From: Gemmatimonadales bacterium
GTDB lineage: Bacteria > Gemmatimonadota > Gemmatimonadetes > Gemmatimonadales > GWC2-71-9
Reading direction: 5' to 3'
NCBI GenBank assembly: GCA_038321865.1
Contig: JBBQFH010000001.1
Span: 128,001 to 192,000, forward strand
Length of the DNA: 64,000 nt
In this document: piece by piece, positions 27,901 through 30,900 of the stretch
How the letters are laid out: every line of letters starts with the position of its first letter
How positions within the stretch are numbered: the first letter of the stretch is position 1
Program-made: the position numbers

Positions 27901-30900
27901 TCCTCGCGCTTCAGCAGCACCCGCGTGCCGACCGCGGCACCGAACCGCGCCGCCTCGGTGATCGGCGTGGGCCTCCCGACAAACTCGGCCAGCAACGCCT
28001 CGCATTCCTCCCAGAAGCCGGCATCGACGCGAACCGCGTCATACAGCAGCGCGAGCTGGTCCAGCGCCGCCACGAGCGTCTCGGGGACATAGCGCCCGCC
28101 GAACGGCCCGAAGCGTCCGCCGACCGCCGTTTCGGGACGGAGCGTCGTGATCAAGCGATCGCCTCCAGGAATCGGACGACCCGGGCCGGATCCTTGACTC
28201 CGGCGCGGAATTCGACGCCGGAACTTACATCGACGACCTCCGGTCGAACGAGGGCTGCCGCCGCCCGAACCGAGTCGGGCTCGAGTCCGCCCGCGAGCAC
28301 CATTCGCCTGCCTGCGAGCAATCGGCGGGCCTCGAGCGCCAGCTCCAGTGCCAGTGGCACGCCGGCTCCGCCCTCGGCGTAGCCCACCCGCGCCTCAACC
28401 AGGACCGCATCGGCGCCCTCGGCGGCCTCGGGCAGCATCCGGAGGTCTGCGGCGTCCGCTACACGGACTACGCGCCACACGATCAGCCCTTCACGGGCGA
28501 GAGCTCTGGCATCCGCTACACGGTAGCGCCCATGCAGCTGCGCTCCGCGAAGACCCGCCTCGTCCCTCACCCGCAGGATCGTGGAGGTGGGCTGGGCGCC
28601 GAACACGCCGAACACGGGAACTGATCCTGCGGCCTGGACGATCCCGCGAGCGGCCGATGCGTCGACCAGCCGGGGTCCGCTGGCGAAGACGACGCCCAGA
28701 TACGACGCGCCCGCCGTCACCGCAGCGGCAGCGTCGGCGGCCCGAGTCAGGCCGCAAATCTTCACTTCAACGGCCATGTCGTGGCACGGTGGCGAGCTGC
28801 TGCAGCAGGGGCGCGGGGTCAGCCAGCGCGCTCAGAGCTCCGCCGATGAGCACGGCATCCGCGCCCGCATCGGCGGCCCGGGCAACGTCCGCGCGCGTCG
28901 CCATCCCGCTCTCCGCCACGGCGAGCCGCTCCGAAGGGATCGTGCTCAGCAAGCGCCAGGCCGCAGGCGTGTCCACGGCGAACGTATCGAGATTCCGGCT
29001 GTTGACACCGATTATCGCGGCACCGACCTCGAGCGCACGCCCCAGCTCCGTTGCATCGTGCACTTCTACGAGCACATCGAGACCCACCCGCTCCGCCTCC
29101 CGGCTGAGGGCGCGCAGCCGCTCGTCGGAGAGCGCACGCACGATCAGCAGCACGGCTGATGCCCCGGCAATTCGCGCTTCAAGCAGCTGCTCCTCGAACA
29201 GGACAAAGTCCTTCCGGAGCAGCGGGATCGCCACCCGGTCCGCGACGGCCCGCAAATCGGCGAGCGAGCCGCCGAAGAACGGACCGTCGGTGAGGACCGA
29301 AATCGCAGCCGCGCCGTGCGCCGCGTACCGGGCGGCGTGCGCCACGGGGTCGAGTCCGGGCTGAATCTCGCCGCGGGACGGCGAGCGCCGCTTCACTTCC
29401 GCCACGACGGCGACTGGCCCGGCGCGCAGCGCCTGGGCGAATGAACGGCCGTGCGGCGCTGCAGATGCCGCCCGCTCCAGTTCGCCACGGCGTGCTCGGA
29501 GCCCGGCTTCCCGCCCCCGCGTTGCCTCCAGAATCGTCTCGAGTGTCGACACTTGCCCTTCGGTCGCCTTTCGGGTATCGTAGTTCGGGCTCTATTCGGT
29601 CACATGCAGCAGGAGAATAACGGATGCCCCTGACCAAGCGGCAAAGCGAGATTCTGGCGTATCTCCAGACGCATATCAGCGGGCAGGGCTACGCGCCCAG
29701 CTTCGAGGAGATCGCGGAGCAGTTCGGGTTCCAGTCGCTCGCCACCGTCCACGAGCACCTGACGAACCTCGAGCGGAAGGGCTACATCCGCCGCTCGTAC
29801 AACGAGAGCCGCTCCATCGAGGTGCTCCCGCCGCGCGGCACCAGCTCGGCGACGGAGATTCCGCTGCTTGGCAAAGTGGCCGCCGGCATGCCGATCGAAT
29901 CATTGATGCATCAGGAGATGCTGGCCGTCCCCGAGGCGATGCTACCGCGGCGCGGCCCCAACTTCGCCCTCCAGGTGCAAGGATCGTCGATGATCGACGA
30001 GCACATCATCGACGGCGATTTCGTGGTGGTGCATGGCAAACAGTCCGCCGAGAACGGCGAAATGGTCATCGCCCTGGTCAACGGGGCCGAGGCAACGGTG
30101 AAGAAGTTTTATCGCGAGGCCGGCGGATGGATCCGCCTCCAGCCCGCGAACGCGACGATGCAGCCGATGCGGTATCAGGAACGCGACGTGCTCATCCAGG
30201 GCATCGTCGTCGGCGTCATCCGCAAATACTGAGTCAGCCCCCGGGCATGGCCGCGCGGAGTCTCTCCAGCGCGGCCATCGCCGCCCCCCCTTCAATCGCC
30301 CCGACCGCCCTCGCCACCGCTTCTTCAAAATCGCACACCAATCCGGAAACGTGAATTGCGGCGGCCGCATTCAGCAGCACCGCCGCCCGTTCAGCCTGGG
30401 TGCCATTGCCGGCCAGCACCGCCCTGATGCGACCTGCGTTTTCGGCCGGATCGCCGCCGGCAAGTGTCGAGATGTCGTCGACGCCAAGCCCATGATCCGC
30501 GGGGTCTATTGCCCACTCCCGCACCATGCCGCTCCGCACTTCCCAGACCCGCGTCCTGCCGGATGGACTGACCTCGTCCATCCCGACCACCGCATGCACG
30601 ACGACCGCGTGAACCGCGCCGAGCCGGGCGAGTGCGCCGGCCATGAGCGGGCCTCGGCGCTCGTCGGCCACGCCCACCACCTGCCGGCGCGCGCCGGCCG
30701 GATTCACCAGGGGTCCGAGCATGTTCATGACGGTCGGCACGCCGAGTTCGCGCCGGGTCGGACCGACATGGCGCATGGCCGGGTGATAGGTCGGAGCAAA
30801 AAGAAAAACCAGGCCGCTGGTGGCCAGCACCGTCGCCGCCCGATCCGGCCCCATGCCGATCTCGATGCCGAGCGCCTCGAGCACGTCGGCCGAGCCGGAG

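Follow-up and report, generated by a model that had tools for sequence, protein, structure and literature searches.

Direct repeats are an established form of LexA operator. The box of the Alphaproteobacteria is the direct repeat GTTC-N7-GTTC (PMC8565304, PMC9578287), and LexA of the Balneolaeota also recognises a direct repeat, its regulon taking in lexA and recA, error-prone polymerases and a radical-SAM protein (PMC7739468). The latter study further cites a direct-repeat motif for LexA of the Patescibacteria (Sanchez-Osuna, Barbe and Erill 2017, PMID 28618189), and cites Acidobacterium work (PMID 16549674) for direct-repeat LexA structure; Table S2 of PMC8565304 includes the LexA proteins of A. 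capsulatum, one Parcubacteria and one Collierbacteria among those validated by experiment. The Gram-positive box is given as CGAAC-N4-GTTCG in PMC9578287. No Gemmatimonadetes LexA box was found in the literature searched (most subscription papers lie outside that search), and the word Gemmatimon is absent from the examined supplement file of PMC8565304 and from those of PMC7739468.

We propose, with a probability of roughly 0.92, that the main LexA repressor of the class Gemmatimonadetes has TTCGG-N6-TTCGG as its operator, as the initial annotation of this genome had predicted; this reading draws strong support from the sequence of the box, its position and conservation, the genes that it precedes and its covariation with the recognition helix of LexA. 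In the window (the whole 64,000-nucleotide stretch of Gemmatimonadales DNA that was analysed), lexA encodes 202 aa at 29624-30232 on the plus strand, and two boxes do stand before it on that strand, as had been claimed. Box 1 (29559-29574), which ends 49 nt before the lexA start, fills the 17-bp spacer between a predicted -35 hexamer (TTGCCC, 29553-29558, plus strand) and a predicted -10 hexamer (TATCGT, 29576-29581, plus strand); box 2 (29584-29599), 24 nt before the start, lies over the predicted transcription start, and a putative ribosome-binding sequence, AGGAG, follows at 29611-29615 on the same strand. With its spacer filled and its start covered, this predicted layout, on which the initial annotation had not remarked, is that of a repressor.

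The promoter is predicted to be of sigma-70 type. Among 83 two-box class promoters the T, T and G of the -35 hexamer are conserved in 75, 82 and 74, and the T, A and last T of the -10 hexamer in 81 each, and the exact layout TTGnnn-box-n-TA recurs in 77 of the 94 class genomes read. The hexamers of the present genome match at only 8 of 12 positions and a single-genome promoter scan (threshold 9) made no call, so that the promoter call here rests on conservation. The gene lies antisense inside trp genes (28767-31421 of the window), between trpD (30234-31421, minus strand, NCBIfam TIGR01245 and ORF list), with which it is convergent, and trpC (28767-29552, minus strand, NCBIfam NF001377), which is divergent from it and starts one base from the -35 hexamer. 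The starts of trpC and lexA are 71 nt apart and the divergent arrangement is kept at 74 of the 95 class loci, so that trp expression could be influenced by the binding of LexA or by transcription of lexA.

Conservation of the boxes was followed through 150 other genomes of the phylum, of which 131 belong to the class and all of these have lexA; the DNA upstream of lexA was read for 94 of them, with two unpublished genomes excluded. Every one of the 94 has at least one exact box upstream of lexA, 84 have a second, and none has an exact box inside the gene body, while the six spacer bases vary freely and the half-sites stay invariant, over LexA identities as low as about 50%. The claims made earlier on a smaller set, of a box before lexA throughout the class with half-sites kept and spacers free, are thereby borne out. 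The gap from box 1 to box 2 ranges from 5 to 21 nt across the class, which argues for two separate operators. Only a spacer of six is enriched, whether genome-wide, at lexA or in the target-gene sets of the class.

Scanning GTDB genomes for the double-box layout gave at least 120 loci; 86 of the matches listed carry lexA, and these are titled Gemmatimonadota except for two unclassified records and one Holophagales record. The lexA promoter of this last record (L297/G155) matches that of class genome G058, and it is possibly a mis-assigned contig or title. The remaining loci among the matches listed are mostly period-11 tandem repeats of Bacteroidota and others. Such tandem repeats, with TTCGC or TTCGG, were seen in Capnocytophaga and other Bacteroidota with no lexA nearby (L191, L215, L227, L236, L239, L246, L247 and others).

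The lexA product scores 213 bits against TIGR00498 (cut-off 111) and its close homologues are named Gemmatimonadales LexA. All canonical LexA features are present, namely a winged-helix domain, an Ala-Gly cleavage site and a Ser/Lys dyad, and alignment to solved LexA chains places cleavage at Ala87-Gly88 and the catalytic residues at Ser122 and Lys160. It is the single full-length lexA of the assembly, which is 90% complete. In the recognition helix (codons for Ser38-His45 at 29735-29758, plus strand), Ser38-Glu44 align with Ser39-Glu45 of E. coli, Glu44 being the counterpart of Glu45; the Ala-Thr pair and the Glu are invariant in 95 of 95 class LexA rows. Ser39, Asn41, Ala42, Glu44 and Glu45 are described as DNA-binding residues of E. 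coli LexA in PMC13416735.

In the sister classes the initial annotation had found no box at three lexA genes. This holds for TTCGG, absent from all 14 sister-class loci, but not for the direct repeat as such: at 12 of the 14, with Ala-Thr/Lys in the LexA helix, TTCGC-N6-TTCGC occupies the same promoter slot, the other two being one TTCGT/TTCGC locus and one that is cut short. Beyond lexA, there was no exact box at any of 15 sister-class recA loci with full upstream DNA, and a radical-SAM query had no match in 19 sister-class genomes; TTCGC scans of two such genomes yielded 6 and 7 matches where the reversed control yielded 8 and 5, and a wider regulon can therefore not be defined there.

Among 61 Acidobacteriota genomes, 52 of them with lexA (49 rows were read, without two unpublished ones and with one added), the repeat at lexA again changes with the helix. 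Exact TTCGC repeats stand in 11 of the 22 rows that combine Ala41-Thr42 with Lys45. Asn41 goes with TTCAC or TACAC, Gly-Thr/Asn with TACGC (three rows) and Arg45 with TTCGT/TTCGC, and one Glu45 row has the TTCGG box, twice; in many of the 49 rows no box was seen upstream. A second promoter type, that of the radical-SAM genes, behaves alike: six of the nine Leu-Ala-Thr/Lys genomes have TTCGC there, two of the four Asn41 genomes have TTCAC, and TTCGG is found in none of 17. In a quick tree with a weak backbone, LexA of the Gemmatimonadetes nests among that of the Acidobacteriota.

The box had been presented as a motif of the class, but it is not confined to it. A metagenome scan for TTGAC-TTCGG-N6-TTCGG-TAT gave at least 119 loci, many at 30-45% GC, and for 26 of the loci listed a lexA gene could be read downstream. 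All of these motif-selected matches have Glu, Gln or Asp as residue 45, and none has Lys or Arg. One of the proteins behind such a box clusters with a Ca. Nealsonbacteria protein, its nearest named relatives being LexA of Portnoybacteria, Parcubacteria and Azambacteria, and another clusters with a Spirochaetota LexA; in the Patescibacteria-like lexA genes, TTCGG-N6-TTCGG again lies inside the -35/-10 spacer. TTCGG thus stands before Patescibacteria-like and Spirochaetota-like lexA and in one Acidobacteriota row, and is not private to the class, being the G-variant of a direct-repeat box common to the sister classes, Acidobacteriota and Patescibacteria-like lexA. Some of the low-GC Patescibacteria-like LexA frames exceed 320 aa (L374, L386, L393, L405, L414, L440) and their homologues carry DNA methyltransferase Pfam domains, which suggests LexA-methyltransferase fusions under their own box.

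Taken over 73 tree rows (a quick tree, and a FastTree of the LexA C-terminal domain), an acidic or amide residue at position 45 goes with G as the fifth base of the half-site and a basic residue with C in 71, the two exceptions being G209 and G189. The tree holds six residue changes; a single independent pair is left when well-supported branches alone are counted, and six when every branch is, and 16 metagenome rows owe their selection to the motif itself. Because the independent switches are few and these rows motif-selected, the apparent residue-base code amounts to a strong lead and falls short of a statistical result. Nor is the rule absolute, since recA boxes of Glu genomes often begin with TTCGC or TTCGT; such boxes may repress less strongly and so leave a basal level of RecA. 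The code is chemically plausible, as the half-site on the opposite strand begins with C where the helix has Glu and with G where it has Lys or Arg. In E. coli, whose LexA also has Glu45, the half-site begins with C.

That the letters of the box covary with the helix of the main LexA across phyla, at both lexA and radical-SAM promoters, is our main argument that LexA itself is the binder. It is also what makes it improbable that another DNA-damage regulator, such as a WYL-domain activator of the PafBC/DriD kind or a second LexA paralogue, binds the box instead of the main LexA. Regulators of the PafBC/DriD kind do act on repair genes, and a second LexA-like gene (36-39% identity) is present in many genomes of the families designated f2 and f7; yet this assembly has only its one full-length lexA, the two second-LexA genes inspected (L670, L671) have a different recognition helix and lack the TTCGG box upstream, and a site that fills a 17-bp spacer and covers the start suits a repressor.

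Still less probable is that the repeats form UUCG tetraloop hairpins in RNA, or that they belong to the promoter of the divergent trpC. TTCG corresponds to the UUCG loop motif, and trpC adjoins lexA at most class loci, as described above. The flanks, however, seldom allow a hairpin: of 358 half-sites, 270 have no closing pair or one, and only 13 have four or five. Radical-SAM and recA genes, moreover, have the box in either orientation, and it is retained at loci that lack trpC as a neighbour and stands before unrelated repair genes. We therefore rejected both the UUCG-hairpin and the trp-promoter readings, on the scarcity of closing pairs and the retention of the box away from trpC.

Genome-wide, TTCGG-N6-TTCGG has 19 matches, against 13.7 expected from the frequency of the half-site, so that the total is itself not enriched; enrichment is confined to the intergenic share, which is 12 of 19 with independent gene calls (9% of the DNA non-coding), as in the original count, for which 6% had been given. 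The 20 other spacers between 0 and 20 have 0-3 intergenic matches each and 27 of 329 together, which gives a binomial p of 2.7e-9 for spacer 6. Chance and shared descent in a GC-rich genome, which the near-expected total and the non-independence of related genomes might favour, have next to no probability left and are refuted by these intergenic-share and spacer controls, together with half-sites that stay invariant beside free spacers down to the LexA identities given above. No spacer gives a peak of inverted TTCGG pairs in the genome, and one-mismatch sites show no genome-wide enrichment at spacer 6 (37 intergenic, against 27-43 at other spacers). Strict scans of four complete genomes are interpretable only in part, the gene caller having missed or overextended genes; in one of these scans loci were obtained for 30 of 46 matches.

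Nine of the 12 intergenic sites precede lexA or repair genes. All nine sites listed in the initial annotation exist and the genes downstream are as named there: besides lexA, they are recA-recX, imuA-imuB-dnaE2, two uvrA genes, mutM with a GIY-YIG/UvrC-like gene, and two radical-SAM genes, one PA0069-like and one UDG-linked. The PA0069-like gene (C8:113007-113717; L004:3007-3717) looks truncated: its match to a 358-aa homologue is limited to residues 21-183 of the latter, and the remainder was not found in the assembly. One-mismatch boxes precede uvrB (L546:1267-3300) and a ligase-associated DNA-damage exonuclease (TIGR04122; L547:2137-3171).

The other three sites precede genes with no clear repair role, the same number as had been noted before, and Rfam and tRNA scans found no RNA over them. 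One precedes an IS-like/methyltransferase pair. Another precedes a response regulator with ccmABC, and in relatives it is exact in none of four and has one mismatch in one; a c-di-GMP-I riboswitch (L003:2709-2804) lies upstream of a STAS gene, the response regulator and ccmABC. The third, an exact box, precedes a gene of the glyoxalase/bleomycin-binding family (L008:2290-2673), divergent from a BNR gene; a one-mismatch box stands before the sole homologue (L680) found among five relatives, and this gene is possibly a real member of the regulon.

Not all of the regulon listed for this genome extends through the class. Upstream of recA, TTCGN-N6-TTCGG is found in 36 of 41 class genomes, 15 of them with the strict TTCGG form. 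The strict box stands before recA in 10 of 10 genomes of this genome's own family, in agreement with the earlier claim for that family; that claim's complement, absence from seven more distant genomes, applies to the strict form only, as TTCG[CT]-N6-TTCGG is present in families f6, f7 and f8. In families f2, f6, f7 and f8 the first half of the recA box is mostly TTCGT or TTCGC, and in f6 the box is reversed. The recA match of genome G067 (L160) has one TAG near its end, which is probably a natural stop.

In a panel of 30 class genomes, the PA0069/SplB-like radical-SAM gene has an exact box upstream in 21 of the 24 genomes that have the gene. Of 11 imuA genes, eight have one directly upstream and three lie just behind a boxed radical-SAM gene. 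The UDG-linked radical-SAM gene occurs in only three of the 30, with an exact box at 5 of 5 loci. Before radical-SAM genes, as before recA, boxes occur in both orientations, and other spacers give at most one exact match per 24 in the target-gene sets of the class. By contrast with these class-wide targets, an exact box precedes mutM in none of 30 other class genomes and the orthologue of one of the two uvrA genes in 2 of 30; mutM and uvrA are at most recent, lineage-specific targets. The predicted class-wide core regulon consists of lexA, recA, imuA-imuB-dnaE2 and radical-SAM genes.

A LexA dimer would bind the two half-sites head-to-tail, one helical turn apart, the 11-bp period placing both on one face of the helix. 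At lexA, protein bound in the -35/-10 spacer and at the second operator over the start site would block sigma-70 RNA polymerase. DNA damage would activate RecA and so stimulate self-cleavage of LexA at Ala87-Gly88, through Ser122 and Lys160, as the RecA-stimulated cleavage and derepression established for the LexA family (PMC9578287) would suggest. Release would then extend to lexA, recA-recX, imuA-imuB-dnaE2 and the radical-SAM repair genes throughout the class, and in this genome also to uvrA, mutM and possibly uvrB. On the other strand the half-site reads CCGAA, and Glu44 (E. coli Glu45) most likely contacts the first C; Lys or Arg in its place would read G, giving the TTCGC of the sister classes and Acidobacteriota.

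Considering the wider distribution of the box, we put at even odds the broader proposal that Gemmatimonadota, Acidobacteriota, Patescibacteria and one group of Spirochaetota share an ancestral LexA that binds a direct repeat of 11-bp period in the sigma-70 spacer, and a half-site code in which position 45 sets the fifth base (Glu/Gln/Asp for G, Lys/Arg for C) and positions 41-42 the fourth (Thr42 for G, Asn41 for A). If this were true, SOS boxes of uncultured phyla would be predictable from the LexA protein sequence, single substitutions would switch LexA specificity, and there would be cultured models for a two-fold-symmetric dimer that reads a head-to-tail repeat.

LexA motifs of single phyla are a familiar kind of result, and the surprise here is moderate. 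What is gained, for a phylum of common soil bacteria that is abundant and little studied, is a testable SOS operator with its core regulon, which centres on mutagenic repair (imuA-imuB-dnaE2) and radical-SAM genes, not on excision repair. The operator also takes its place in a cross-phylum family whose boxes vary in step with the recognition helix, so that both the change of motif and direct-repeat binding by LexA become testable through single substitutions.

Among the published boxes, that of the Gram-positive bacteria has the half-site CGAA/TTCG in common with the Gemmatimonadetes box but is a palindrome, whereas the Gemmatimonadetes box is a direct repeat and inverted TTCGG pairs are without a peak. 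The alphaproteobacterial box is a direct repeat of 11-bp period with TTC in common; its G before TTC, however, is not conserved in the Gemmatimonadetes (it precedes the second half of box 1 in 31 of 83), in which, unlike the alphaproteobacterial box, GG after TTC is invariant. The Balneolaeota resemble the Gemmatimonadetes in having a direct repeat and a similar regulon, radical SAM included, but differ in sequence (a TACA core) and, as printed, in a longer period.

For Acidobacterium capsulatum, Mazon et al. reportedly gave in 2006 the consensus GTTC-N7-GTTC, which is like the Gemmatimonadetes box a direct repeat of 11-bp period with a TTC core. That consensus is exact in none of the 55 upstream regions compared; the Acidobacteriota sampled have the promoter layout of the Gemmatimonadetes lexA, and differ in a conserved unit of TTCGC (or TTCAC, TACGC) and in Lys at helix position 45. 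At Patescibacteria-like lexA the same TTCGG-N6-TTCGG lies in the -35/-10 spacer; because the same box precedes these genes, the TTCGG motif is probably already in print for Patescibacteria, and the Gemmatimonadetes box is likely to equal their published consensus. The two differ in phylum and in number, Patescibacteria usually having one box before lexA and Gemmatimonadetes two.
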